DNA from: Escherichia coli
GTDB lineage: Bacteria > Pseudomonadota > Gammaproteobacteria > Enterobacterales > Enterobacteriaceae
Reading direction: 5' to 3' (one strand)
NCBI RefSeq assembly: GCF_003790525.1
Contig: NZ_CP033635.1
DNA length: 64,000 bases
Position 1 is the first letter of the stretch, and each line of letters begins with the position of its first letter. The notes beneath the pieces were generated by a model. That model did no database searches. It had not been told where the DNA came from and saw nothing but the letters and a program-made list of their open reading frames with translations. A program made the position numbers and the translations under genes. Below, in pieces: positions 1,986-51,740 of the stretch.

Positions 1986-2203
1986 GCAAGCCAACCGACG
2001 AAGAAATAGTTCGGGTGTTGGAAGAACACGGGCGCTGTATGACTTACGTCGTGACCAACTGGCTTAGGGATAAATATCGCACACTCAAAACGGCATACGT
2101 TTTGCGTCGTCTAAAGAAACTGGAGTTCGACGGGAAAGTAAAGCGCGTTAACAGTTCTTATATAAGACAAATTTGCTGGGAGGCAACCAGTGAGCGAGAT
2201 TGA
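1982..2203 (+). CDS. hypothetical small basic protein
   Basis: 73-aa ORF overlapping neighbours by 4 nt. Confidence 0.3.
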   Translation: MSKPTDEEIVRVLEEHGRCMTYVVTNWLRDKYRTLKTAYVLRRLKKLEFDGKVKRVNSSYIRQICWEATSERD

Positions 2204-2789
2204 TTATCAGGCGCTACGGGAACGTTATTCACCTAAGCCAGTACCTGAATGCTCTGTTTGTGGCGAGGAAATGTCAATACAGCGCATATCTGGAGCACAT
2301 GTTGTTTATGCCTGTTCCGGTGAGGGTGATGACGGATATTTTAAGATAGGGCGTACTTTTGCAGACGAACATTATGAAGAATCACGCGTAACAGTAGTTG
2401 ATGATAGTGATCCCGATGTGATTGCACTACTGGACGAACTGGAGGCAGCAAAATCAAAACTCAACGAGCAGCGTGAATATTACGAGGGAGTAATCGCGGA
2501 TGGGAGTAAGCGTATTGCAGAACTGGAAGCACGGGAAATAAAACCAGCCAAAGGCGAAGTTCTTGTCGTTGTATCTGGTTTTACTGGTTGCGGAAAAAGC
2601 GCCATTGCCGGGGAAATAGAAATCGCGATGAAGGCTATTGGTGTGCCGGTTCTATGGACTAATGGCGATGCGGAAAAGCGCATGACAGGAGCTGACTGGC
2701 TGACAGCGATTGAGATGTACAAACCAAATGTGCGCATCGTGGAAGTTAATGTGCCACGCGTCGCTGGCATTCGCACCAAAGGAGAGTGA
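2190..2789 (+). CDS. Ea22-like protein with Cys-pair and P-loop-like motif
   Basis: N-terminal MSEIDYQALRE, CSVCGEEM...YAC Cys pairs, coiled-coil segment, GFTGCGKS Walker-A-like motif. Confidence 0.35.
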   Translation: MSEIDYQALRERYSPKPVPECSVCGEEMSIQRISGAHVVYACSGEGDDGYFKIGRTFADEHYEESRVTVVDDSDPDVIALLDELEAAKSKLNEQREYYEGVIADGSKRIAELEAREIKPAKGEVLVVVSGFTGCGKSAIAGEIEIAMKAIGVPVLWTNGDAEKRMTGADWLTAIEMYKPNVRIVEVNVPRVAGIRTKGE

Positions 2790-2790
2790 T

Positions 2791-3306
2791 ATGGCGTTAA
2801 CACACCGCGAACTCTGTCAGATTGCGTACAAGTTCCTTAAGCGCAACGGGTTCAAGGTTTGTTTTCATGACCGCTTTATAGCTGTAACCAGTACCGGAGA
2901 GCAGCCAGATGCTATGGGATTCAGAAATTCAGCATCATGCCTGATAGAGGCGAAATGTTCTCGTGCTGACTTGTTGGCAGATAGAAAAAAGCGTTTTCGT
3001 AAAAATCCATCTCTTGGAATGGGCGACTGGCGATTCTTTATTAGTGAGCCGGGAATTATTTCAATTGAGGATTTACCACCTGGCTGGGGATTACTTCACG
3101 TTGTTAACGGAAGAGTACGGAAAGTACATGGGTGGCCCAGGGGTAATTGCTGTTGGGGTAATCCTGACGATAAGCCATTTACTGGAAATAAGCAGGTTGA
3201 ATGCGATTACATGTTATCTGCATTAAGGCGCATGGAGTTGAGAGGGCACCTTAATGAAATATATGACGGTGTAATTGTTAATAAGAAAGAAGGAAACGCA
3301 GCATGA
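2791..3306 (+). CDS. putative PD-(D/E)xK-type nuclease-like protein
   Basis: ATG at 2791 directly after upstream stop; motif PDAMGF ... LIEAKCSR fits D...(E)xK core; C-terminal Cys/Trp-rich tail. Confidence 0.3.
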   Translation: MALTHRELCQIAYKFLKRNGFKVCFHDRFIAVTSTGEQPDAMGFRNSASCLIEAKCSRADLLADRKKRFRKNPSLGMGDWRFFISEPGIISIEDLPPGWGLLHVVNGRVRKVHGWPRGNCCWGNPDDKPFTGNKQVECDYMLSALRRMELRGHLNEIYDGVIVNKKEGNAA

Positions 3307-5289: not shown

Positions 5290-6555
5290 ATGGCGCTACC
5301 TGCAGAAAGCCTTATTGCGCATACGCTCAGAAAAATGAAGGCCAGCATGGCAGAGAAAGCCAGTCGTGAGGACGGGAGGATACGCAGTGGGCTGTTGTTT
5401 ACCGGCAATGTTCACGATTCGTATCCCCGCAGGCTGTTGCTGGATACGCGCCTTTCTCCCCTTGATAAAACTGCGTGGATGATGATTCGTCTGCATGCCC
5501 TGAATAATGAGGGCGCAGTATTTCCGACGTACGATGAACTGCAGTTACAACTGGCATCTCCCGGGTGCGGGAAGGCGTCCCGTGAAACAGTGAGCCGGGT
5601 GCTGACAATGCTGCGGCTTACGGGCTGGCTGAGTCTGTGTAAGCGGGTCAGGGATGAAAAAGGGCGGGTCCGGGGGAATATTTACGCCCTGCATGATGAG
5701 CCACTGACCTGCTGTGATGCAGAAAAGTTTGACCCACGATACCTGGATATGGTTCTGGATACTGTGAGCAGGAGCCGGAACAAGACAATCCGGCACACAG
5801 CCAGTGAAGTGCTCAGTGATATCAAAAATGAGCCCGGTATGCGGCATTACCACAGCCATATCACTCTGTTTGAATCGCGTATGGGGGCAGCACAGACACC
5901 TGGTCAGCTGGCGGCGCGTCAGCGGGTGAACCCGATGGTGAATGAAAACACAGGCAGAGAGAGTGGTTCGGATTCCGTACATACCCCTGCACCTGTCGTG
6001 CAGGTAACCGAACTCAGTGCTCCGTTAACCGAACTCAGTGAAAAACAGGAAATGAGCCCACTCAGTTCGGATTCCGTACCGCCTGAAAAATCAGTAACTT
6101 ATCACTCGGTTCGGAAACCGAACAATTACGTACGTAATATCACACACAGTGTGATTAAAAATACGTACGTATTGCCTGAGTCGGTGAAATCGCAAATCAG
6201 CACAGAAGACACGGACATGCTGACAAAACAACTGCAGGCGTTGCCGGAAGAACTGGCAGGTAGTGTGCTGAGCAGCCTGTCACAGATGCTCAGCAAAAAC
6301 ACGCTCCAGAATCCGGTTGGCTGGATGCTGGCTGTGATGAAACGTGCGCGTGAGGGAAGTTTTAATACGCCGGATATGTCCGTGCATGAATCCCGGTCGC
6401 CAGCCCGTGCACCATATCAGCCTGTGTACAACCGTGATGAACGTGAACGTCGTCGCAGGAAAGTGGCGTCACCTGAAACGGTGAGCAACATTGTCGCAGA
6501 ATTCCGTGCCAGCCTGAAACGTGCAAATGCTGCCCGTCTGGCGGCGCGTGTTTGA
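5290..6555 (+). CDS. STY4528-family pathogenicity-island replication protein (putative)
   Basis: 421-aa ORF with AGGAG RBS; family name from memory; immediately followed by iteron-like tandem array. Confidence 0.45.
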   Translation: MALPAESLIAHTLRKMKASMAEKASREDGRIRSGLLFTGNVHDSYPRRLLLDTRLSPLDKTAWMMIRLHALNNEGAVFPTYDELQLQLASPGCGKASRETVSRVLTMLRLTGWLSLCKRVRDEKGRVRGNIYALHDEPLTCCDAEKFDPRYLDMVLDTVSRSRNKTIRHTASEVLSDIKNEPGMRHYHSHITLFESRMGAAQTPGQLAARQRVNPMVNENTGRESGSDSVHTPAPVVQVTELSAPLTELSEKQEMSPLSSDSVPPEKSVTYHSVRKPNNYVRNITHSVIKNTYVLPESVKSQISTEDTDMLTKQLQALPEELAGSVLSSLSQMLSKNTLQNPVGWMLAVMKRAREGSFNTPDMSVHESRSPARAPYQPVYNRDERERRRRKVASPETVSNIVAEFRASLKRANAARLAARV

Positions 6556-7381
6556 TGGTTAAAAATCGTACGGTGTTGGCAGTGCCAACAGTGGTTAAAA
6601 ATTGTGCGGTGTTGGCAGTGCCAACAGTGATTAAAAAATGTACGGTGTTGGCAGTGCCAACAGTGGTTAAAAATTGCGCGGTGTTGGCAGTGCCAACAGC
6701 GGTTAAAAAGTGTACGGCGTTGGCAGTGCCAACAGTGATTGAAAAATGTACGGTGTTGGCAGTGCCAACAGTGATTAAAAAATGTACGGTGTTGGCAGTG
6801 CCAACGGTGATTAAAAAATGTACGGTGTTGGCAGTGCCAACAGTGGTTAAAAATTGCGCGGTGTTGGCAGTGTCAACAGTGGTTAAAAATTGTGCGGTGT
6901 TGGCAGTGCCAACAGTGATTAAAAAATGTACGGTGTTGGCAGTGCCAACAGTGGTTAAAAATTGCGCGGTGTTGGCAGTGCCAACAGCGGTTAAAAAGTG
7001 TACGGCGTTGGCAGTGCCAACAGTGATTGAAAAATGTACGGTGTTGGCAGTGCCAACAGTGATTAAAAAATGTACGGTGTTGGCAGTGCCAACGGTGATT
7101 AAAAAATGTACGGTGTTGGCAGTGCCAACAGTGGTTAAAAATTGCGCGGTGTTGGCAGTGCCAACAGTGGTTAAAAATTGTGCGGTGTTGGCAGTGCCAA
7201 CAGTGATTAAAAAATGTACGGTGTTGGCAGTGCCAACAGCGGTTAAAAAGTGTACGGCGTTGGCAGTAGCAACAGCGATTAAAAAATGTACGGTGTTGCC
7301 AGTGGCAACAGTGGTTAAAAAGTGTCCGGCGTTGCCAGTGGCAACAGTGTTTGAAAATTGTACTGAGTTGGCACTGCCAAC
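6556..7381. repeat. tandem array of ~23 x 36-bp repeats, each with a 17-bp palindrome TGTTGGCA-G-TGCCAACA (iteron/centromere-like)
   Basis: Read directly: 36-bp period (palindromes at 6574-6590, 6610-6626, ...), unit GTTAAAAATTGYRCGG + palindrome; last copies carry symmetric variant TGTTGCCA-G-TGGCAACA. Confidence 0.9.
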
Positions 7382-7486
7382 ATGACGTAATTTCAGTCAT
7401 TCCTTTTTTTATTTTTGATTGTCAGATCTCCGTCTGCAGGCTGACTATTTCAGCCCGATATCCTTTTCTTTTGCCGGAGATATAAC

Positions 7487-8212
7487 ATGTCTGAAGAACA
7501 AATGAAGGAACCCGCATCCCGTCGTGTAGGTGCGCTTACTTCACCAGTGAATATCGAGTTGCACTCCCGTTATGCAATCATGCTGTGGGAAGGGAGACGA
7601 GGCACGAAAAGTAAAAGTGCTGAAGATCGCAGGGCAGCGAAAATAATGAGTATGCCGGAAGCTATTAAGATGACTGGCGGCCTCTACAGAGATTCTCTTG
7701 CTGATAATCCCTATGCGGATGAAACGATGTGGAAAGTTGAAAATGCGATTGTTGAGGCAACCGATAAAATTAATGCTGAAGTTCGTGTACTTGAAGGGAT
7801 CCTCAGAAATATTCCGTCAGTGATCACTGTCCGGGATGCTCTTTCTCGTTCTCCTGTCGATATTGGGGTTTTCAGCCGCTCTCCTCTGGGCTACCGCTGT
7901 GTATGGCTTCTTGTCGGGTATGATCAGCTTGCATTAAAAACGTTTCAGGCAGCACATCTGGGGCTTATTTCACGAAACAGGCGTGATGAGTTGTTGTCTT
8001 CTGGTGCGCATCTTATCCGCAAAATTTACGGTATTCTGCAGGGGTATCGCACTATGGCGGTAACTCGGGATGATATTGAGAATAAAACAGAAAAGGCAGA
8101 GAAAGCTATTGCCCGTTATGGTATGCCTCATGATGATATTCTATCCGGTAAGCTCAGATCTTCATTTTCTCCGCCCCTGAACCGTAAGTCCCGTGATGCA
8201 TCCCGGCAATGA
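7487..8212 (+). CDS. conserved ICE-associated protein
   Basis: 241-aa ORF between repeat array and topB; position conserved in this island class by recollection. Confidence 0.4.
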   Translation: MSEEQMKEPASRRVGALTSPVNIELHSRYAIMLWEGRRGTKSKSAEDRRAAKIMSMPEAIKMTGGLYRDSLADNPYADETMWKVENAIVEATDKINAEVRVLEGILRNIPSVITVRDALSRSPVDIGVFSRSPLGYRCVWLLVGYDQLALKTFQAAHLGLISRNRRDELLSSGAHLIRKIYGILQGYRTMAVTRDDIENKTEKAEKAIARYGMPHDDILSGKLRSSFSPPLNRKSRDASRQ

Positions 8213-10514: not shown

Positions 10515-10815
10515 TTGACTTTATTTATGGCTGTTTTAAAAATGAGCATGCTAAATAGCTGCTTTGCAGCCAACCAATCTCCCGGTGGTCTGAGAGGGAG
10601 GCTTACGCGACCACACTGTCATCTTCGGATGACCAGCCAATGTTCCAGCAGTCTGAGAGGAGCGCCTTCGGGTGACTGCCAGCCAATGTTTCAGCGATCT
10701 GAGAGAAACGCCTTCGGGTGATTGCAATATCCTCGTAGCCTGAAAGGGGATGCCTTTATGGCGGTACATCCGTTTAGCCTCTGGGAACGGATATCACCAC
10801 TGGTGATTGAGGTAC
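10515..10815 (+). ncRNA. candidate structured RNA or ssDNA element with three hairpin modules (copy 1), unclassified
   Basis: -35-like TTGACT at 10515; modules at 10587-10612, 10649-10678, 10695-10724 each with outer stem, UGAGAG-rich internal loop and CGCC-UUCG-GGUG tetraloop stem; extra hairpin GTCATC-TTCG-GATGAC at 10618-10633. Confidence 0.45.
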
Positions 10816-10937
10816 GTTTAACTGCACAGACAGCCGGAAATTCAGCTGATTCCGGCATCCCCGACGGGAACTATCACTCCCGTCAGGGCTGGTGATGTTC
10901 TCCGTCATATCTTTTTTTACTCCATGGAGAAATCATC

Positions 10938-12321: not shown

Positions 12322-13290
12322 GTGAGTGAAAAAGTTAACAAAATCACTATGATTCATGACGGGGCGTTCAAGAAGACGCTTGAAGATCCCGCCGCAGTAA
12401 GGGACTTTCTTGAACAGGTCTTGACACACGATCAGATATCCCGCTGTAATCTTGATACAATAGAAGTTGAAAAGAATTCGTTCGTGACGGAAAGTTTGCG
12501 TCAGCATGCCTGTGATGTTTTGATCAGCATGAAGACAAACGACGGCAGGGACGGATACATTTATACCTTAATCGAGCACCAGAGTTCGCCGGATAAATTC
12601 ATCCCGCTGCGTATGATGCGATATATCCTGGCTGTAATGGAGCAACATGTTGAAAAGCATAAGTGTGCACCTGTGGTGATCCCCGTGTTGTTTTATCATG
12701 GTGCAATGCGGCCATATCCGTATCCGCTGAACTGGGTGGATTGTCTGGATGACCCGGAGTACGGACGGGAGATTTATGGCGAGTCAAAGTCATTCAGTCT
12801 GGTGGATGTCAGTACGCTTGATGATGATGAAATTGAGCAGTATCGCCGGATGGCGGCGCTGATGTACACCATGAAGTCCGGAACTCAAGGTGATTTGATT
12901 GAGCTGATTGGTAAATCGATCACACTGACGGATAAGTATGGCAGTAGCATTCACCTGAATACGGTGCTTACTTATCTGATGGAACTTTACCAGATGGATG
13001 TTGCTGAACTTTTTGAAGCAATATCCACACACTATCCCAGCCATAAGGGGGTGATTATGACGATAGCGGAACAACTGGAAGAGAAAGGTCGGGTTGAAGG
13101 TCTGGAGAAAGGCCTTGAGAAAGGCCTTGAGAAAGGCCGTGCTGAAGGCCGTGCTGAAGAGCGTCAAAAAGCGCTTGCAGAAACTTATGCATCTGTCCGT
13201 CGCATGAGCGATATGGGGATGTCAACGGAAGTTATTAAGCAGGCACTTCATCTTTCTGATGAACAGATTCAGGAAGCGCTTAATAATTAA
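12322..13290 (+). CDS. rpn: Rpn-family recombination-promoting nuclease (YhgA-like, PD-(D/E)xK)
   Basis: GTG 12322 four nt after GGAGG; motifs IEHQSSPDKFIPLRMMRY and VIPVLFYHG; C-terminal GLEKG repeats; track ORF 12043..13290 extends upstream in frame. Confidence 0.7.
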   Translation: MSEKVNKITMIHDGAFKKTLEDPAAVRDFLEQVLTHDQISRCNLDTIEVEKNSFVTESLRQHACDVLISMKTNDGRDGYIYTLIEHQSSPDKFIPLRMMRYILAVMEQHVEKHKCAPVVIPVLFYHGAMRPYPYPLNWVDCLDDPEYGREIYGESKSFSLVDVSTLDDDEIEQYRRMAALMYTMKSGTQGDLIELIGKSITLTDKYGSSIHLNTVLTYLMELYQMDVAELFEAISTHYPSHKGVIMTIAEQLEEKGRVEGLEKGLEKGLEKGRAEGRAEERQKALAETYASVRRMSDMGMSTEVIKQALHLSDEQIQEALNN

Positions 13291-13385
13291 CCTCGCATCG
13301 TAATGATGTGGCAGAGCGCGACTGATGCGTCAGAACGTGTGATGCCCTGTGAACACAGCGCCTGCCATTGTGCAGGCGTTTTTTT
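12978..13385. repeat. direct repeat copy A (3' end of rpn plus downstream hairpin region)
   Basis: About 400 bp nearly identical to 13407..13770 apart from number of 15-nt GGCCTTGAGAAAGGC-type units. Confidence 0.8.
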
Positions 13386-13405
13386 ATCAATCAGTCTGGT
13401 AAATT

Positions 13406-13672
13406 GTGATGGAACTTTACCAGATGGATTTTGCTGAACTTTCTGAAGCAATATTCACACACTATCCCAGCCACAAGGGGGTGATTATGACGATAGCGGA
13501 ACAACTGGAAGAGAAAGGCCTTGAGAAAGGCCGTGCAGAAGAGCGTCAAAAAGCGCTTGCAGAAACCTATGCATCTGTCCGTCGCATGAGTGATATGGGG
13601 ATGTCAACAGAAGTTATTAAGCAAGCTCTTCAGCTTTCTGATGAACAGATTCAGGAAGCGCTTAATAATTAA
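13406..13672 (+). CDS. stand-alone duplicate of Rpn C-terminal domain (RpnS-like small protein)
   Basis: 88-aa ORF about 90 percent identical to last ~95 aa of rpn, fewer GLEKG units, own GTG/ATG start. Confidence 0.5.
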   Translation: MMELYQMDFAELSEAIFTHYPSHKGVIMTIAEQLEEKGLEKGRAEERQKALAETYASVRRMSDMGMSTEVIKQALQLSDEQIQEALNN

Positions 13673-13770
13673 CCTCACATCGTAATGATGTGGCAGAGCG
13701 CGACTGATGCGTCAGAATGCGTGATGCCCTGTGAACACAGCGCCTGCCATTGTGCAGGCGTTTTTTTTGT
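13407..13770. repeat. direct repeat copy B
   Basis: Second copy of rpn 3' segment including conserved downstream hairpin GCCTGCCATTGTGCAGGCG + T-run. Confidence 0.8.
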
Positions 13771-38795: not shown

Positions 38796-39070
38796 TTGAC
38801 GATAGCTTTTTTCTTTTGTTATTCTGTACCCGCTTTAACTGTCGCTTCGGCGACCAACCAATCTCCCGGTGGTCTGAGAGGGAGGCTTACGCGACCACAC
38901 TGTCATCTCAGGATGACCAGCCAATGTTCCGGCAGTCTGAGAGGAGCGCCTTCGGGTGACTGCAATATCCCATGAGCCTGGAAGAGGATGCCTATATGGC
39001 GGCAACATCCGTTTAGCCTCTGGAAACGGATGTCACCAGTAGCTGGTGACTGAGGTACGTTATTTTTACC
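38796..39070 (+). ncRNA. candidate structured RNA or ssDNA element, two modules (copy 2)
   Basis: -35-like TTGACG 38796; hairpin GTCGC-TTCG-GCGAC; modules matching copy 1 A and B; terminal hairpin GTCACCAG-TAGC-TGGTGAC + T-run near 39031-39068. Confidence 0.45.
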
Positions 39071-39818
39071 TTCGGATTACCCGTACGGTTTTGTATGTCA
39101 TGAAACTTACGAGTTTTCCTCTCGCAGAGTGGCGAAAATGCCTTATATATCTGCGTCTTAAAGATTTTCTGTCTGGCTGCATGAGCTTCTTGTGACTGTG
39201 CGCACGGCATAAGGCCATTTGAAATTTGGCTGCTTGCGTGTGTACGTGGAGTCTGAAGCTGTGCGGCGTCACTTGCGTGCGACCGGAGGGAACACCAAGT
39301 GACGCCACAACAATCTGCCCTGAAAGCAGCATCACGTAAGGCCAGCCAGAAAATCGTCGCTCGTGACCAGCGTTCTGATGACCGTTTCGTCTGTCTGACA
39401 GCGTCTTTCAGTAACGTGTCCATGCCTTTCCGGCGCGTCCGTTTTCACGGACGGCCACGCCGGAATGTCTTTTTAAACTTCATAATACATGAGAGGTAAG
39501 TGTATTAAATAGTTGAAAAAAGGAATAAATATGAAAAATCGTTCTGATGTCGGAAGGCGTCATCGTAAGATGACGGGGAGTAAAAAATCGCCCTGGTGCA
39601 CAGGTAGCGAACTCCTGTAAAAACTCAACATGTGCAAGCTCTGCTACATCGACATCAAACGAGCCAGGAAGGCGAGCAACCGCGTTACAGAGCCGTCCGT
39701 GATGACGAAAAACTAACAATATCAACGATCTGGTCTGTTTATCGGAAGGGCATCTCATGCAGTTGAACTTTCAGAACGGATGGTTTTCTGCATCTTTTTT
39801 AACAGGGGGATTGACGTT

Positions 39819-40736
39819 ATGTCCCGTAAATCGTCACGTTCCAAAGTTGAAGTCTTTCGCAAGTCATTCATCTCACTTGCCCGTGATTGTGGTGGCAGCT
39901 ACGCAACAACCGCTGACAGAATGCGAATTGCCAGATACTTTTTGAATTATTTGCAAGTAAACGGTATCAAACTTCGTCAGACGGGCAGTATTAAGACGAG
40001 GCATATTTCTGGTTATCTTCTCAGCAGGAAAGAGCAGGGGATCTCTCACCGCACAATTCAGAATGAACGGGCAGTTATGCGCGCAATTCTAGAGAAAGAT
40101 GGTCGCCTTAAAATAGCGGATCCGTCCAATCCTTTATTGAGCAATGAAGCTCTTGGACTCAGGGATACATGCCGTGATGGTAAAAAGATACCACTCTCAC
40201 AGGATGAGTTTAATAAAGCCTTCAGTAAGGTTGAAAAAAATAATCCCGGTGTTGCTGCAGTAATGCAAATTTCTTATGTTCTTGGACTGAGGACAAAAGA
40301 AGCTGTTCAGTCTTGTAAATCAGTTAACTCGTGGCTACGTGAACTTGATTCAGGGCATGATTCTCTTCTCGTTGTTTTTGGGACGAAAGGTGGAAGGCCC
40401 AGAGATACAACGATCATTAATCGTGATGCAGTGAAACATGCGCTCATTTATGCAAAAAACATTATGGATAAACAGAATGGTAAACTTATCGATTGCCCCA
40501 ATATTAAACAGGCTATAAACGTATATCGTTACCATGTAAGAAAAGCTGGTTTATCTGGAGTGAAGGCACCACATAGTATGCGTTATCATTTTTCGCAGGA
40601 AGCAAGGCAGTTTTATCGAAAAAGTGGATATGGAGATAAAGAAATTTACGCAAGGGTTTCCATGGACCTTGGTCATGGTGACGGAAGAGGGCGTTATGTA
40701 AAACAGGTCTACTTTAAAGGCGATGATGAGAGCTGA
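39819..40736 (+). CDS. tyrosine recombinase/integrase-like protein
   Basis: ATG 39819 preceded by GGGGGA; SAM-like N-terminal region; candidate catalytic residues GLRTKEA, HSMRYHF, GRGRYVKQVY. Confidence 0.5.
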   Translation: MSRKSSRSKVEVFRKSFISLARDCGGSYATTADRMRIARYFLNYLQVNGIKLRQTGSIKTRHISGYLLSRKEQGISHRTIQNERAVMRAILEKDGRLKIADPSNPLLSNEALGLRDTCRDGKKIPLSQDEFNKAFSKVEKNNPGVAAVMQISYVLGLRTKEAVQSCKSVNSWLRELDSGHDSLLVVFGTKGGRPRDTTIINRDAVKHALIYAKNIMDKQNGKLIDCPNIKQAINVYRYHVRKAGLSGVKAPHSMRYHFSQEARQFYRKSGYGDKEIYARVSMDLGHGDGRGRYVKQVYFKGDDES

Positions 40737-40739
40737 TAT

Positions 40740-41480
40740 TTAAAATGAATCCGGAGGATATGTGTTTTTCGCGAACTTATTAATTTCTGTAATAAGAATT
40801 TCTGATGCACGATTACACATGCTCTCATTAAAGTATCCTATATGGCATTCATGGATGCGGCAATTTAGTTTTCTGGATAGCCATCTGTTTGCCTCGTTAC
40901 GGGATATATTTGTTTTTTGCTGATAGCTGTCAAAAAGTTTACGCACTTGTGCTCTGAGTATTCTCAAATTTTCTTTAGCTGGAGTACCTAATGGTCTCCC
41001 TGAATTTTTATGACATCCAACCCATGCATTGCATGGGCTGCAAATCCAGTAATATTTGTTTTCTGTAGTGGGTGTCGTGGAAAATGGCATAAGTGCACCT
41101 TTTCTGAGTTGTGCCTTATTACCACAGTAAGTGCAGATTACAATTGGACGAACATCTGCAATATTCAGTGCTGCATAAGTAAGACGTTCATTTTTCATCA
41201 TGTTTCGTTTTCCACAGTCAGTGAGAATATGCTTTATTGTGTCTAATTCTTCTCGGAGTATTTTTGAACGGACGCCAGTTCGATAACGCTGTTGAAAGTA
41301 GAGCTCAATATGGCGTAGTTTTATACTATTTATTGATTTTATCTGTATATTGGATTCTTTAAGAAATGAAGCAAATCTTCTGGCTCTCCCCATATATACC
41401 AGTATGTCTTCTGGTGTCGGGGCGCATGCTTTAGCTATTTTGATTAGCTCATCTTTTAATTTTTTGTATTTCGATTTCAT
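40740..41480 (-). CDS. integrase N-terminal-like domain fused to zinc-ribbon domain
   Basis: N-terminal ~100 aa resemble N-terminus of 39819 gene product; C-terminal CTYCG...CSPCN...C..H cluster; convergent, stops 3 bp apart. Confidence 0.45.
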   Translation of the reverse strand: MKSKYKKLKDELIKIAKACAPTPEDILVYMGRARRFASFLKESNIQIKSINSIKLRHIELYFQQRYRTGVRSKILREELDTIKHILTDCGKRNMMKNERLTYAALNIADVRPIVICTYCGNKAQLRKGALMPFSTTPTTENKYYWICSPCNAWVGCHKNSGRPLGTPAKENLRILRAQVRKLFDSYQQKTNISRNEANRWLSRKLNCRIHECHIGYFNESMCNRASEILITEINKFAKNTYPPDSF

Positions 41481-41593
41481 CCTGATATCTCTCTTTAAGG
41501 TTCATTAAGAGTGTTACTGAGTAAAAAAATATCAAATTAAGTATTTATTGTCATTCAGTTGTAGCTTCTCAGCCGCTCCACGACAATAACAAC

Positions 41594-41890
41594 TTGAAGT
41601 TTTATGCAGTTTGTGCTTACAATTTAAACGCTAACTTGTCGCTTCGGCGACCACCAATGTTCCATGTGGCCTGTGAGGAACGCCTTCGGGTGGCCCACGT
41701 CGCTCCGGCGACCACCAATGCTTCATCTGACCTGTGAGGAGCGCCTTCGGGTGGTCAGTTTTACACCTCCTGAGCCTGAAAGGAGCTGTGCGTGCTGAAG
41801 GGATATGTTCCCGGAAGTACGGGCAAATCTGCGCACCTTTGAGAGCAGATGTCACTGCGGTTTTCCGTGATGATGAAGGCTTTTTTATCA
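41594..41890 (+). ncRNA. candidate structured RNA or ssDNA element, two modules (copy 3, divergent)
   Basis: TTGAAG (41594) and TACAAT (41618) promoter-like pair; two modules with stems GUGGCC/GGCCCAC and CUGACC/GGUCAG around UGUGAGGA-CGCC-UUCG-GGUG; T-run near 41881. Confidence 0.4.
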
Positions 41891-42009: not shown

Positions 42010-42411
42010 ATGTTTATTCCACTTCTGTTTCGCGCAGAGATGCGCCTGACACCTTTCTTTCAGCGACTCAGACAACGTCTGTGTTATCCGGTGAGTCGTG
42101 TTCATACACAACATCCCTGGTCTTCTCCACAGTTGCGGCACCTTTACTGCACGCCGTGGTTTGTTAACGCCACCGGCAATCTGGCAGTCCGTGCCTGCAT
42201 TCTTTCCATTGACGGTTCTTTGCGACACTGCTTTGAGTTCCGTGAAGGCTCTCACAGCCGTGAATACCGTTTCTGGTTTGAGGCGCTTCCTTTGTCGGTA
42301 CTGCGTTTTAACGCTTTTACCGGTCGAATATCCGATCGCCGTACACTCTCTGCTGCCTCCCGTATGGCCGCGCAGCTTACTTCCTTTCGCTATCGCTTCG
42401 GTTTGCGCTGA
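42010..42411 (+). CDS. hypothetical Arg-rich protein
   Basis: ATG preceded by the same 18-nt TTTTATCCGGAGGTTCCG as rpn; antisense ORFs also open here. Confidence 0.35.
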   Translation: MFIPLLFRAEMRLTPFFQRLRQRLCYPVSRVHTQHPWSSPQLRHLYCTPWFVNATGNLAVRACILSIDGSLRHCFEFREGSHSREYRFWFEALPLSVLRFNAFTGRISDRRTLSAASRMAAQLTSFRYRFGLR

Positions 42412-43368: not shown

Positions 43369-43878
43369 ATGAAAACGAAAACTTCTGCACCTGCTGTATA
43401 TGTTGGTACCTGGGCTAAATACAACAATGGCAGCATAGAAGGATGCTGGTTTAATGATTTAACCGTTTTTGAAACTGAAAGCGATTTTTTATCTGCGGCC
43501 CGTAAGTTTCATCAGGATGAAAAAGATCCTGAATTTATGTACCAGGATTATGAAAACTTTCCTTCGGGAATGGCTTCAGAATATGGTTTCAACTGGGCTT
43601 ATGTTGAAGGTTATCGTCTTGCCCGTGAAGAAGGCTGTGAAGATGCATGGTATGCATGGGTTTCTAATACCGGTGATACCTGTTTCGAACAGTTCAGGGA
43701 GGCGTGGCTTGGTGGTCCTTATGACAGTGAACTCGAGTTCGCCGCGCAGTACGTGGATGAATGCGGTTTTCTGTCAGAGGTACCTGATACTGTTGCACGC
43801 TATTTTGATTATGAGGCTTTTGCGCGCGATTTGTTCATGGAACTGGATTTTGTCGACGGACACGTTTTCCATCGGTAA
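43369..43878 (+). CDS. ardA: antirestriction protein ArdA (DNA-mimic, anti-Type I R-M)
   Basis: Motifs AVYVGTWAKYNNGSI, DPEFMYQDYE and C-terminal ARYFDYEAFARDLFM match ArdA family; very acidic. Confidence 0.85.
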   Translation: MKTKTSAPAVYVGTWAKYNNGSIEGCWFNDLTVFETESDFLSAARKFHQDEKDPEFMYQDYENFPSGMASEYGFNWAYVEGYRLAREEGCEDAWYAWVSNTGDTCFEQFREAWLGGPYDSELEFAAQYVDECGFLSEVPDTVARYFDYEAFARDLFMELDFVDGHVFHR

Positions 43879-44840: not shown

Positions 44841-44915
44841 CACACCGCCATCCCGTGAGGGCTCAGCTCCTCACGGGGCTGTTCCCTCGGTGATTTTCAT
44901 ACAGAGAGGAGCAGA

Positions 44916-45353
44916 ATGATGAACGTTAAGTCTGTGACTGAGGTTGACGACGCTGTGGTTGCCCGTGTCAGTGAAGTTCTGGAATTCGCATTTCCGGGGC
45001 AGAAATTTGAAGTGCTGAAGGTATGCGATTCCGGCGTTTACAACATGATTAATGTGTACTGGCTGGACGGCCCGACACAGGCTGAAGTGCGGTTTATCAC
45101 CCGTGCGTTTGAAGGCAAAAACGGGCTGAGGTTTGTGCACGAATCCCGCGAATTCAGTAATGAATTTGTGCAGGAGTGCATTGACCGGCTTCGCCAGAAG
45201 TACGGGCATCGCAACGTTCCGCCAGAGGTGACCGTGGAGCGTTACTGGAAAAACGATCTGTGGAAGATTAAAACAGATCGTTTCCCGGGCACTATTGAGG
45301 TTGCCATCAACGAAATGGGGATGGAAACCAGTAAATACCGGAAGGTTGTATAA
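44916..45353 (+). CDS. hypothetical protein
   Basis: 145-aa ORF with GAGGAG RBS; preceded by hairpin CCGTGAGG..CCTCACGG. Confidence 0.4.
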   Translation: MMNVKSVTEVDDAVVARVSEVLEFAFPGQKFEVLKVCDSGVYNMINVYWLDGPTQAEVRFITRAFEGKNGLRFVHESREFSNEFVQECIDRLRQKYGHRNVPPEVTVERYWKNDLWKIKTDRFPGTIEVAINEMGMETSKYRKVV

Positions 45354-45460
45354 CCGGCTGGACTTTTGACGATGGCGGAATGTGACAATTCCGCTTTTCC
45401 CGTGAGGGCATTGTTCCTCACGGGACAATGCCCTCTTCATTTACCAGAGGAGCATTGATT

Positions 45461-49437: not shown

Positions 49438-51474
49438 TTAGTTCCTTACCACCAAATCTAAATCAATAGATTTTTTATTAGCATAACTTTTTAGTGCTTC
49501 ATTGAGTTCCATCTGTTTCGCACTTTCGAAGTTGCTGCCATAAAATACAACTTTGTTAGGGGCAAAGTCTTTGTCTGCATCCAGCTTTTGAAGTAAAGCT
49601 TTCAAAGCCTCACTTGTGAAATTAGGCGCAATTAGATATAGCCGACCATCGCACAAGTGTGCTTTGTAGCCATTAAGGTCAATATCTTCAATTGGTGTTG
49701 TTAGCAAGCTGCCATCATACACGCACCATGTCGTCAATAGAGTGTCATACTGCTCTGGTGTCAATACAGCATCGTCAAAGAAACTAAGATTAGAAAGCGT
49801 AAGTTCAGACTCATCTTTCACTCGAAAATTATGAACTGTTTCAAATATTTTAAATCCCAAATCTCCATTATAATTAGGATTATCTTTTTTCAGCTTTTTT
49901 CCTGCCTTAATAATTCTGTCTTTTGTTATATTGAAGATGGATTTATACCCTTCTTTATAGGCTTGTTTCTTTTTATCTGTTTCTTCATCTAATTGAACAC
50001 AGATGAAGTTTCTTTTCCTGCCGTCTTCAATATTTAACTCCAGAATACCATGAGCTGTAGTTCCAGAGCCAGCAAAAAAGTCAAGATAAATGTCTTTATC
50101 TTCGGCTTTTACTGAACCAAATAGTGTTTTTATTAAACTTGTTGGCTTCGGGTAGGAGAAATATCCTTTCCCACCAAAAAGATTTTCAACCTCAACACCA
50201 CCATCACTTTTAGTTGAAATAATTGATCTTAGTAAAAACTCTTCAACTTCATCTAAAAATTTAACCGAACTGGGTTGGGTGTTTTCTGTACTGGCAAACC
50301 AAATTCCACCACAAATAACGCTACCATCATGTAGTTTTTTGATATCTGCATACTTTCCATCTATTCTTTTTGCAATATGATTAAAAGTGCCTTCTTTCCA
50401 ACGCCAGCCTCTGTCTGGGATTTTGACAGGGTTATTAGTCAAAGGGTGCAATACTTCATACGTGGGTCCAAATGAATCTGCATTAGGCCAGCTCATATTA
50501 ATTTTACCCCATGGCCTATAATCTTCGTTCAAACAGTTGTAAAGAGTAATTCCACGATCATATCCGTTGGAGCTGTAGAATTTTTTGAGTTGCTGCTCTG
50601 CTTTATCTAATGGCACCTTCTCCTTTTTTAACTTTTCAATAAACTGATATACATCATCAATACCATCTTTCCGCATTAAAAATTCTTTACTTATTTCGTT
50701 ATTCTTCGCATAAGCAAGGATGTACTCATGGATATTACCAATACCCTTATCATTTTTAGGGATACGTTTATTCCATACAATATTTTCTATGAAATTTGCT
50801 TCGCCAAAAATTTCATCACAAATAGTTTTAAGTTGATTTAATTCATTTTCGTCAATCGAAATAAATATCACACCATCTTCACGTAGAAGCTCACGAGCAA
50901 TATATAAACGAGGATAAATGAACGTTAACCATGCGCTATGGCTGCTTGAACCATTCGTGGTAAATTCAAGTATACGTTTAGCCTCATCAAGATCGATACC
51001 TGCCAGATCAGAAAGCTGTTCAGGTGTAAACTTGCGATCATCGTTATAGGCGAATCCATCCTTACCTGTATTGTATGGTGGATCAATGTAAATCATCTTC
51101 ACCTTTTCAGAGTAAGCATTAACCATATGCTTCAATACTTCGAGGTTATCCCCTTTGATTAACAGATTCTGACTGTTTTTGTTCTCTTCACGTTGGTTAT
51201 GGTCTTTATCTTCGGAGAGTAATGTCTTCGGCGGCAAGTTAGCTAACAGACGGGCATAGGATTTACCAAGCCAGTTCAGGCTGTATGATTCTTTGGAGAG
51301 TTCAACATCCGATGATTTGACGATTTCAAGCAATTTTTCCTGAATGAACGCTCCATTTTTATCAAAACACTGTGGAAAGTTAGCCTTTAAAATCGCAAGC
51401 TGTTTACTGTTTGTGGTTTCAGTTTCAGAGAAAAGAGTTTCTTTTTTCAGTTGAAATTGGGGTTGTGTATTCAT
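49438..51474 (-). CDS. mod: Type III R-M N6-adenine methyltransferase Mod
   Basis: DPPY motif (IYIDPPYNTG) before FxGxG motif (LDFFAGSGTTAHG); N-terminus resembles EcoP15I-type Mod; GGAGGT RBS. Confidence 0.88.
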   Translation of the reverse strand: MNTQPQFQLKKETLFSETETTNSKQLAILKANFPQCFDKNGAFIQEKLLEIVKSSDVELSKESYSLNWLGKSYARLLANLPPKTLLSEDKDHNQREENKNSQNLLIKGDNLEVLKHMVNAYSEKVKMIYIDPPYNTGKDGFAYNDDRKFTPEQLSDLAGIDLDEAKRILEFTTNGSSSHSAWLTFIYPRLYIARELLREDGVIFISIDENELNQLKTICDEIFGEANFIENIVWNKRIPKNDKGIGNIHEYILAYAKNNEISKEFLMRKDGIDDVYQFIEKLKKEKVPLDKAEQQLKKFYSSNGYDRGITLYNCLNEDYRPWGKINMSWPNADSFGPTYEVLHPLTNNPVKIPDRGWRWKEGTFNHIAKRIDGKYADIKKLHDGSVICGGIWFASTENTQPSSVKFLDEVEEFLLRSIISTKSDGGVEVENLFGGKGYFSYPKPTSLIKTLFGSVKAEDKDIYLDFFAGSGTTAHGILELNIEDGRKRNFICVQLDEETDKKKQAYKEGYKSIFNITKDRIIKAGKKLKKDNPNYNGDLGFKIFETVHNFRVKDESELTLSNLSFFDDAVLTPEQYDTLLTTWCVYDGSLLTTPIEDIDLNGYKAHLCDGRLYLIAPNFTSEALKALLQKLDADKDFAPNKVVFYGSNFESAKQMELNEALKSYANKKSIDLDLVVRN

Positions 51475-51531: not shown

Positions 51532-51659
51532 GTTGCGTTGCGTTGCGTTGCGTTGCGTTGCGTTGCGTTGCGTTGCGTTGCGTTGCGTTGCGTTGCGTTG
51601 CGTTGCGTTGCGTTGCGTTGCGTTGCGTTGCGTTGCGTTGCGTTGCGTTGCGTTGCGTT
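51532..51659. repeat. pentanucleotide simple-sequence repeat (GCGTT)n, ~25 copies, 58-185 nt upstream of mod start
   Basis: Read directly: uninterrupted gttgc/gcgtt tract from about 51532 to 51659. Confidence 0.95.
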
Positions 51660-51740
51660 TCATTAAATAGCCTCGAGTTTCGTTTTACAGGTTTTTATTC
51701 TAACCTGAATTGTTGATTTTCTGAATAAGTCTGACGTCAG

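Follow-up and report, generated by a model that had tools for sequence, protein, structure and literature searches.

Three copies of the STAXI motif (RF01728) are present in a 64,000-nucleotide stretch of Escherichia coli DNA (contig NZ_CP033635.1, assembly GCF_003790525.1), which is referred to in its entirety as the window. Each copy is a transcription unit of its own. Behind the promoter, the RNA opens with a tetraloop hairpin, and the modules that come next, of which two or three are canonical and one or two degenerate, fold as H-type pseudoknots. The identity of these elements as STAXI copies and the reality of their structure are near certain. The best overall explanation, to which we assign a probability of about 0.6, is that STAXI is an RNA leader shared by three operons, and that the noncoding cassette built around copy 2 is an origin-of-transfer (oriT) region that yields an RNA used in transfer. 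The STAXI motif itself is already known, and the new lead is its link to a relaxase and to oriT. This link gives STAXI, which has been without a known function since 2010, a testable role in conjugation. The EFASI motif (RF02957), which lies in the same cassette, has been in that position since 2017.

The best database matches of the window are E. coli chromosomes, and the annotation of these relatives identifies it as an integrative and conjugative element (ICE) of the SPI-7/PAPI-1/SGI-4 type, the ICE family in which STAXI was originally defined. At the matching region, the relatives are annotated with TIGR037xx "integrating conjugative element" proteins, TraD, TraG and a type IV pilus with a shufflon, as well as with STY4528 and STY4534 "replication" proteins, topoisomerase III, ssb and ArdA.

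Three pseudoknot arrays and their promoters

A scan of the whole window with Rfam returns three STAXI matches, all of which cover the full model, lie on the + strand and exceed the gathering score of 40.5 bits (Table 1). When a covariance model built for a single module (R1) is run on both strands with filters off, seven clear modules are found, three in copy 1 and two in each of copies 2 and 3, with none elsewhere in the window. An earlier examination of the window, the sequence-only reading, had described these elements as one family of hairpin modules with three copies on the + strand, and both scans bear this out, including the locations of the two further copies. It had implied a new element, which is instead Rfam's STAXI, and it missed both EFASI and the conserved hairpin described below. 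Its comparison among copies also stands. Copies 1 and 2 share 97% identity over 110 nucleotides, and copy 2 has two canonical modules in place of three, whereas copy 3 is divergent in sequence yet retains the same parts, to which a terminal degenerate module can be added. Moreover, the end of copy 3 that it proposed, position 41890, is sensible because this terminal module is followed by a T6 run at 41881-41886.

The fold is supported by extensive covariation. One genome per species was scanned for the conserved module core, and 58 Enterobacterales loci were then searched with the module model, yielding 130 modules (99 distinct) from genera other than that of the window. The pseudoknot helix was included in neither the search model nor the search pattern, and was added only for counting. 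Among the 99 distinct modules, 96.7% of the cells assigned to pairs can indeed pair, compared with 80.5% in shuffles and 33-47% when the partners are slid by one to three columns. Both sides change in 13 of the 14 pairs. All five pairs of the pseudoknot helix covary in this way, and 96.6% of its cells are paired. Thus, the different yet complementary stems that had been pointed out among the window copies reflect genuine covariation. The modules also have strongly conserved unpaired bases, and the loops CCAAUG, CUGAGAG and UUCG recur.

The pairs that depart from the Watson-Crick form reveal which strand is folded. There are 132 G-U cells and 20 A-C cells, wherein the latter are the would-be G-U pairs of the opposite strand. 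The corresponding numbers are 32 versus 8 for the pseudoknot helix, where the ratio is free of bias from the search pattern, and 22 versus 12 for the outer helix. Of the 99 modules, 75 retain a particular G-U pair at the base of the inner hairpin, a figure that is partly biased by the search pattern. The excess of G-U cells on the + strand therefore indicates that the fold is selected on this strand, which is the sense strand of the downstream genes.

Each copy is preceded by a sigma-70-type promoter, as the sequence-only reading had proposed, and the placement of this promoter is fixed. Only 15-16 nucleotides separate the end of the -10 box from the first hairpin in all three copies (10543 to 10559, 38825 to 38841 and 41623 to 41638). 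The copy 3 promoter is divergent from a promoter-like site of the zinc-finger gene on the - strand (41554 to 41526). Most of approximately 70 arrays of other genera have promoters with equivalent placement and differing sequence, typically TTGAC(A/G), 17 nucleotides, a TAnnnT-like hexamer and about 14 nucleotides before the hairpin. The best promoter match ends 30-35 nucleotides before the first module in 33 of 69 arrays, and further clusters of distances come from arrays in which an extra noncanonical module intervenes.

Published data indicate that the RNA is made. In Pectobacterium, strand-specific RNA-seq recorded STAXI transcripts after topB, in segments of about 228 nucleotides (PMC4710047), and RT-qPCR (quantitative reverse-transcription PCR) detected both STAXI and EFASI in a Shiga toxin-producing E. 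coli strain (PMC12370729). A U-rich run follows the last module in copies 2 and 3, but not in copy 1 or in most arrays of other genera. A general terminator after STAXI was therefore rejected as a candidate feature, as the T run is present only in some lineages. Probably, the functional form of STAXI is a sense-strand RNA made from the dedicated promoter. The covariation, the bias of wobble pairs towards the sense strand, the unpaired promoter and the lack of similarity to Frpo/ssi (single-strand initiation) sequences together argue for a transcribed RNA leader, and not for an Frpo-like promoter or a recombination scar.

The genes that follow these arrays fall into recurring groups. For 74 arrays, comprising 71 from other genera and the three of the window, the first sizeable sense-strand open reading frame (ORF) downstream was recorded. 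An integrase-domain protein of 292-342 amino acids is encoded 650-960 nucleotides downstream of 26 arrays, a STY4534-family protein 60-230 nucleotides downstream of nine, and a homologue of a 133-amino-acid protein of the window (42010-42411) 35-220 nucleotides downstream of eight. An ArdC-like protein is included among the single cases. In the window, copy 1 is flanked by the genes for topoisomerase III and ssb, located past the topoisomerase III terminator and 120 nucleotides 5' of a STY4534-family gene and ssb. Copy 2 is followed by an integrase-domain gene, and copy 3 heads a block that extends from the gene for the 133-amino-acid protein through ArdA (43369-43878). The window thus carries the three standard STAXI sites of this ICE family. 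Each copy does stand at the head of a same-strand block, as had been suggested, and its placement in related elements falls in the same three contexts. The proposal of a shared regulatory function also survives, in that a common role in expression or transfer is the best reading.

Table 1. Positions of the STAXI copies, the parts of the copy 2 cassette and the adjacent genes in the window.
Feature	Position	Strand	Remarks
STAXI copy 1	10515-10818	+	Promoter, 5' hairpin (10559-10571), three canonical and two degenerate modules; Rfam match 10617-10770, 139.2 bits
Copy 1 promoter	10515-10543	+	TTGACT-17-AAAAAT, sigma-70-type
Copy 1 canonical modules	10574-10614, 10637-10679, 10683-10725	+	R1 matches
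Copy 2 promoter	38796-38825	+	TTGACG-18-TATTCT, sigma-70-type
STAXI copy 2 RNA domain	38841-39057	+	Rfam match 38901-39060, 89.1 bits; R1 46.2 and 65.6 bits
Copy 2 5' hairpin	38841-38854	+	GTCGC-TTCG-GCGAC
Copy 2 canonical pseudoknot modules	38858-38898, 38921-38963	+	Hairpin 38902-38917 between them
Copy 2 degenerate modules	38964-39004, 39005-39057	+
Copy 2 U-rich run	39061-39068	+	After last module
Conserved hairpin	39262-39309	+	GCGGC-GTCACTTG-N20-CAAGTGAC-GCC; inverted repeat between STAXI and EFASI
Terminator-like hairpin	39428-39475	+	TTCCGGCGCGTCCGT / ACGGCCACGCCGGAA and T run; between conserved hairpin and EFASI
EFASI (RF02957)	39539-39661	+	Rfam 77.2 bits; directly 5' of relaxase-like gene
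Gene for tyrosine-recombinase-fold protein	39780-40736	+	Candidate MOB_M-type relaxase; Pfam Phage_int_SAM_2 and Integrase_1
Convergent gene	40740-41480	-	Pfam Phage_int_SAM_2 and DUF3268 zinc finger; N-terminal domain as in product of 39780-40736
Copy 3 promoter	41594-41623	+	TTGAAG-18-TACAAT, sigma-70-type
STAXI copy 3 RNA domain	41638-41886	+	Rfam match 41637-41808, 83.3 bits; R1 58.2 and 58.7 bits
Copy 3 hairpins	41638-41651, 41699-41712	+
Copy 3 modules	41654-41698, 41715-41758	+	Degenerate part follows
Copy 3 terminal degenerate module	41827-41880	+	Followed by T6 run 41881-41886

A probable oriT leader for a relaxase-like gene

Copy 2 is the first part of a longer noncoding cassette that also includes a conserved hairpin and EFASI. 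The EFASI match, for which the Rfam gathering score is 51.2 bits, begins 479 nucleotides past the STAXI match and ends 119-158 nucleotides before the integrase-domain gene, depending on whether this gene starts at 39780 or at 39819, the position that corresponds to the annotated start in relatives. The order STAXI, a spacer of 363-664 nucleotides, EFASI and integrase-domain gene, all on one strand, is found in 18 of 18 loci tested with Rfam, and the name EFASI itself comes from the association with STAXI and the integrase gene (PMC12370729). Rfam lists EFASI as a probable trans-acting small RNA, whereas we interpret it as the 3' domain of a predicted transcript across a probable oriT. A consensus fold for EFASI could not be derived from a MAFFT alignment, in which no pairs were predicted because the alignment is too poor.

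The arms of the hairpin between the two motifs are invariant. Among 132 fetched loci, 48 contain the exact arms, GTCACTTG-N19/20-CAAGTGAC, in every case between STAXI and EFASI (for example at positions 7058-7093 of locus L013 and 2497-2532 of locus L131). Its lower stem covaries, and includes a compensatory CTTT/AAAG change in an island of enterohaemorrhagic E. coli (EHEC). Rfam has no family for this hairpin, which we consider a candidate for the relaxase-binding inverted repeat of oriT. No conserved ORF was found in the spacer between STAXI and EFASI. One ORF of 66 amino acids (39299-39499) was rejected as a gene, given that it has no family match and lacks a conserved counterpart in the Rahnella and Pantoea plasmids discussed below.

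The gene downstream of EFASI encodes a protein with the fold of tyrosine recombinases, and its match to XerC is faint. Across its entire length (293 residues, E = 3e-92), the product shares 47% identity with WP_033567157.1, an "integrase domain-containing protein" of SGI-4 that is a seed of the MOB_M profile (bioRxiv 10.64898/2026.01.13.699239). The same study reports that relaxases of this tyrosine-recombinase-like class, such as TcpM, MobK and MpsA, are widely missed and annotated as integrases, that 44% of MOB_M relaxases are in MPF_G ICEs with oriT located between the mating-pair operon and the relaxase gene, and that the oriT of SGI-4 has been mapped experimentally. The recombinase catalytic residues R158, K190, H252, R255, H286 and Y298 are near-invariant in 26 homologues, and pSGI4 (NZ_CP061046.1) has the same layout of STAXI, hairpin (2497-2532), EFASI (2697-2845), gene and second STAXI. 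Judging by this similarity, the gene product is most likely the MOB_M-type relaxase of the ICE family. The convergent neighbour shares its N-terminal domain and, by analogy with MpsB of SGI1, is a candidate relaxosome accessory protein. It is fairly likely that copy 2, the hairpin and EFASI constitute the oriT-containing leader of a MOB_M-type relaxase gene.

These features suggest how the cassette might operate. The intergenic region would hold oriT, as expected from the MOB_M study and from the resemblance to one of its seed proteins. From the copy 2 promoter, a transcript of about 830 nucleotides that starts near 38832 and extends to the end of EFASI at 39661 may supply an RNA needed for DNA processing at oriT, and the stability, processing or read-through of this transcript would depend on STAXI as its 5' domain. 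Both proposals are drawn from the analogy with SGI1. Copies 1 and 3 would place the same promoter and leader before the ssb block and the anti-restriction block. The three DNA-handling operons would then be expressed via one shared RNA leader. Indeed, copies 1 and 3 run straight into the ssb and ardA blocks, for which the simplest reading is a shared leader that gives common expression properties. That the RNA of the copy 2 cassette is itself a transfer factor, as in SGI1, is a speculative idea that we put forward tentatively. Comparably tentative is its general form, wherein STAXI and EFASI would mark the 5' and 3' ends of an RNA that serves as cofactor to relaxosomes of the tyrosine-recombinase type. 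Conjugative DNA processing in MOB_M/MPF_G ICEs, and in the islands and plasmids that carry only oriT, would then depend generally on a structured RNA made at oriT, and the same leader would couple the ssb and anti-restriction operons to this programme. The single case of SGI1 would thereby extend to a large class of elements.

At two loci, from Lonsdalea (L064, 8149-8343) and Serratia oryzae (L019, 4171-4257), a C4 antisense RNA is located after the MOB_M-like gene on the strand of STAXI and EFASI, and the Lonsdalea locus also has an isrK-like RNA. These loci fit an earlier published remark that STAXI is sometimes found near c4 RNAs.

Carriers without the gene and competing explanations

The complete cassette is also found without the relaxase-like gene. 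Small-plasmid carriers of this kind are a rolling-circle plasmid of 3.1 kb, the 5.3-kb plasmid pLH50-c-F, which is 99.7% identical to window positions 38839-39811, and three ColE1-like plasmids, two from Rahnella and one from Pantoea. For the Rahnella plasmids, the original study describes an absence of mobilisation genes despite clear signs of horizontal transmission, and these plasmids possess a separate multimer-resolution site and an ssi (PMC2831885). A search of the small plasmids for a cer-type XerCD site, with up to three mismatches, gave no match. A further group of carriers is the ure/ter island type of EHEC, the tellurite-resistance and adherence islands (TAI). About 628 of 5426 complete E. 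coli genomes match the cassette at the 60-80% identity of this type, with about 75% identity among the matches listed. One TAI island inspected has the promoter, STAXI, a variant of the hairpin and a slightly sub-threshold EFASI, followed by copies of IS66 and no relaxase gene.

The gene-less carriers diverge widely in sequence and keep the folds, and therefore the cassette is under selection without a protein encoded in cis. This retention fits what is expected of an oriT served in trans. The TAI islands of E. coli O157:H7 have been described as oriT-only hitchers with an oriT related to that of SGI-4 (bioRxiv 10.64898/2026.01.13.699239), and we infer that the gene-less carriers as a group, both small plasmids and EHEC TAI islands, are hitchers of this sort. 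In an O157:H7 TAI island (L134, 6850-7160), a direct repeat of about 170 nucleotides (GTATTGTTCCGGCGAACTCATATTGACGC...) lies 3' of EFASI, at the place of the relaxase gene, and is followed by IS66. The relaxase gene of this island appears to have been lost or replaced.

Several observations weigh against the explanation of STAXI as a shared leader and of the copy 2 cassette as oriT. The literature searched contains no experiment on the function of STAXI or EFASI. The ICE family also encodes a MOB_H relaxase, TraI (PMC6543542), and thus the recombinase-fold protein may not be the only or the main relaxase. Copies 1 and 3 have neither EFASI nor the conserved hairpin, and therefore any role at oriT would account for only part of what STAXI does. 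Finally, z-scores of minimum free energy, calculated with RNA and DNA parameters for both strands, range from +0.5 to -3.3 with no consistent strand preference, although the minimum free energy fold ignores pseudoknots and these scores are for that reason uninformative.

Rfam labels STAXI as "Gene; sRNA", and one alternative is a stand-alone, trans-acting small RNA or protein sponge in which each pseudoknot binds a host or element protein regardless of the gene downstream. The repetition of modules with strongly conserved unpaired bases would suit such a sponge, as would the U-rich runs after copies 2 and 3, the short segments seen by RNA-seq in Pectobacterium (PMC4710047) and the survival of the cassette on plasmids without the partner gene. 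However, the absence of a T run after copy 1 and most other arrays, combined with genes that start only 35-230 nucleotides downstream, indicates read-through leaders. There is also no known binding partner, and a sponge for CsrA specifically was rejected because its GGA motif is not conserved in the modules. We therefore regard the sponge as unlikely. A different possibility is that STAXI itself is an oriT that acts as DNA, in which case the ICE would carry three oriT-like sites. Copy 2 does lie in the intergenic region 5' of the MOB_M-like gene, STAXI is kept in all relaxase-less carriers, and the related element ICEclc has two oriTs. Nonetheless, this idea is highly improbable, as copies 1 and 3 lie at a distance from the relaxase gene and are without the other parts of the cassette, and stems that covary freely are better suited to RNA folding than to sequence-specific recognition of DNA by protein. 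In addition, the promoter is conserved, the loops are UUCG and a G-U pair is frequently kept.

The location of STAXI before ssb and anti-restriction genes recalls the Frpo/ssi elements of F and ColIb-P9 (PMC11541004, PMC9849209), and its discoverers (PMC2864571) raised a role for DNA, which is also marked by a flag "DNA?". Perhaps the transferred strand folds, and the fold acts in the recipient as a single-strand promoter or as a site of priming, so that ssb and ardA are expressed early. This is quite improbable, given that such an element must fold on the template strand and wobble pairs favour the sense strand by about six to one. No inverted repeat pairs with the -35 or -10 hexamers of any copy, the F leading region, which includes Frpo1 and Frpo2, gives no STAXI match in an Rfam scan, and when five reference Frpo/ssi sequences are compared with the window by blastn, the best E value is 0.059, outside every STAXI copy (the similarity threshold of Samuel et al. 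is E <= 1e-6). The cassette is on the RNAI strand in the three ColE1-like plasmids, and therefore the strand displaced in ColE1-like replication carries STAXI antisense. The same is probably true of the single-stranded replication strand of the rolling-circle plasmid, on the basis of a pC194-like nick region read upstream of rep. The remaining alternative, which the sequence-only reading had also offered, is that the copies are recombination scars that delimit swappable cargo. For many E. coli ICEs, similarity to the window stops at 41753, inside copy 3, and small-plasmid matches start at 38836-38839, at or just before the start of the copy 2 RNA domain. In addition, the STAXI of the rolling-circle plasmid p3 (NZ_CP059920.1, 3140 bp, positions 2197-3140), which is from a strain that also carries the ICE, is a mosaic with a promoter and leader of the copy 3 type, modules 100% identical to copy 1, and a spacer and EFASI of the copy 2 type. 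This mosaic suggests recombination between ICE copies and the plasmid. Recombination does occur in STAXI repeats, but such breakpoints are expected of homologous recombination in any repeated, conserved sequence. From Photorhabdus to Escherichia, the copies retain a pseudoknot that covaries, a promoter at a set position and three recurring gene contexts, which scars would not do. Moreover, all relatives examined have a conserved core module between copies 2 and 3, not variable cargo. The "recombinase-like pair" of this segment is most likely a MOB_M-type relaxase with an accessory protein that shares its N-terminal domain. We consider scars the least credible of these alternatives.

The explanation that we favour, a shared leader with an oriT region at copy 2, would matter for elements of practical interest. 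STAXI and EFASI are carried by ICEs, including SGI-4 and SPI-7-type islands, through which genes for metal resistance and virulence are spread, and by the EHEC TAI islands, of which characteristic matches are present in several hundred complete genomes of E. coli. If the cassette is a MOB_M oriT and its RNA is needed, this would explain how relaxase-less islands and tiny plasmids are mobilised. Dependence of relaxosomes on RNA would then be general and not a peculiarity of SGI1, two orphan Rfam motifs would gain a function, and Rfam matches would serve as a simple sequence marker for finding such oriTs.

Other repeated sequences in the window lie apart from the STAXI copies. Some 29 tandem copies of a 36-nucleotide unit occupy 6448-7503, which could be iteron-like or a repetitive RNA. 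In relatives this is an unannotated gap of about 1 kb between a gene for a STY4528-family "replication protein" and a PFL_4669-family gene. A near-tandem duplication is found at 12977-13767, near the start of the PilL-domain gene region, where 257 nucleotides recur at 95% identity with a spacing of 382 nucleotides and 153 nucleotides at 85% with a spacing of 430. Related hairpin sequences (TCCCGTGAGGGC...CCTCACGGG) at 44851-44888 and 45398-45435 are on either side of an ORF of 145 amino acids (44916-45353) in the ardA block, and may be terminators or another small repeated element. About 26 GTTGC pentanucleotides at 51532-51660, roughly 60 nucleotides 5' of a gene for the methyltransferase of a type III restriction-modification system (49438-51474, - strand), resemble a phase-variation tract.

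Comparison with known systems

The window copies are structurally no different from STAXI as first reported (Weinberg et al. 2010, PMC2864571), with the same tandem pseudoknots, UUCG loops and Enterobacterales hosts. The neighbours that gave rise to the acronym, namely topoisomerase, ssb, anti-restriction and "integrase" genes, are those of the window as well. What is added here is the promoter at a fixed distance, the strand test that favours the sense RNA, the degenerate terminal modules beyond the Rfam model, and the reinterpretation of the "XerDC integrase" as a MOB_M-type relaxase.

Frpo/ssi elements of F and ColIb-P9 (Masai and Arai 1997; PMC9849209; PMC11541004) are similar in that they are structured, noncoding, present in two or three copies and located before ssb and anti-restriction genes. 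However, Frpo is a single imperfect hairpin of about 330 nucleotides through which the template strand forms the -35 and -10 boxes anew, whereas STAXI is a tandem array of pseudoknots, selected on the sense strand, that is located past an ordinary duplex promoter and has no sequence similarity to Frpo. Tandem pseudoknot repeats transcribed from an upstream promoter are also characteristic of ToxI RNAs of type III toxin-antitoxin systems. The ToxI repeats are near-identical and precede a gene for a toxin endoribonuclease, whereas STAXI modules differ in both stems. A ToxI-like antitoxin was rejected because no conserved toxin gene is found downstream, where STY4534-family, MOB_M-like and 133-amino-acid family proteins are encoded instead.

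The closest parallel for the proposed function is the relaxosome of SGI1. For its transfer, SGI1 requires oriT, the MOB_M protein MpsA and a second protein, MpsB, that is similar to the N-terminal part of these enzymes (PMC6414798). It also needs sgm-sRNA, a small RNA cut from the 3' end of a primary RNA of 650-700 nucleotides. From its strong promoter (ttgacg-16-taatat), this primary RNA extends across oriT and stops immediately short of mpsA, and its 5' part influences maturation (PMC9299015). The copy 2 cassette has a corresponding layout, in which a promoter is followed by a structured 5' part, an inverted-repeat hairpin and a structured 3' part that ends before the gene, and the RNA that would span these parts is predicted. 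Both systems combine a relaxase of the tyrosine-recombinase fold, a candidate one in the window, with a second protein that resembles its N-terminal DNA-binding domain, a strong sigma-70 promoter (TTGACG-18-TATTCT in copy 2), and a noncoding RNA, predicted in the case of copy 2, of 650-830 nucleotides that spans an inverted-repeat region up to a point close to the relaxase gene. This likeness is one of architecture. There are also clear differences. SGI1 is a mobilisable island that uses IncC plasmids, whereas the window belongs to a self-transmissible MPF_G ICE, and the accessory gene here is on the opposite strand. Furthermore, the 5' part of the RNA is dispensable in SGI1, whereas its counterpart in the copy 2 cassette, STAXI, shows the strongest conservation and recurs in front of two other operons.

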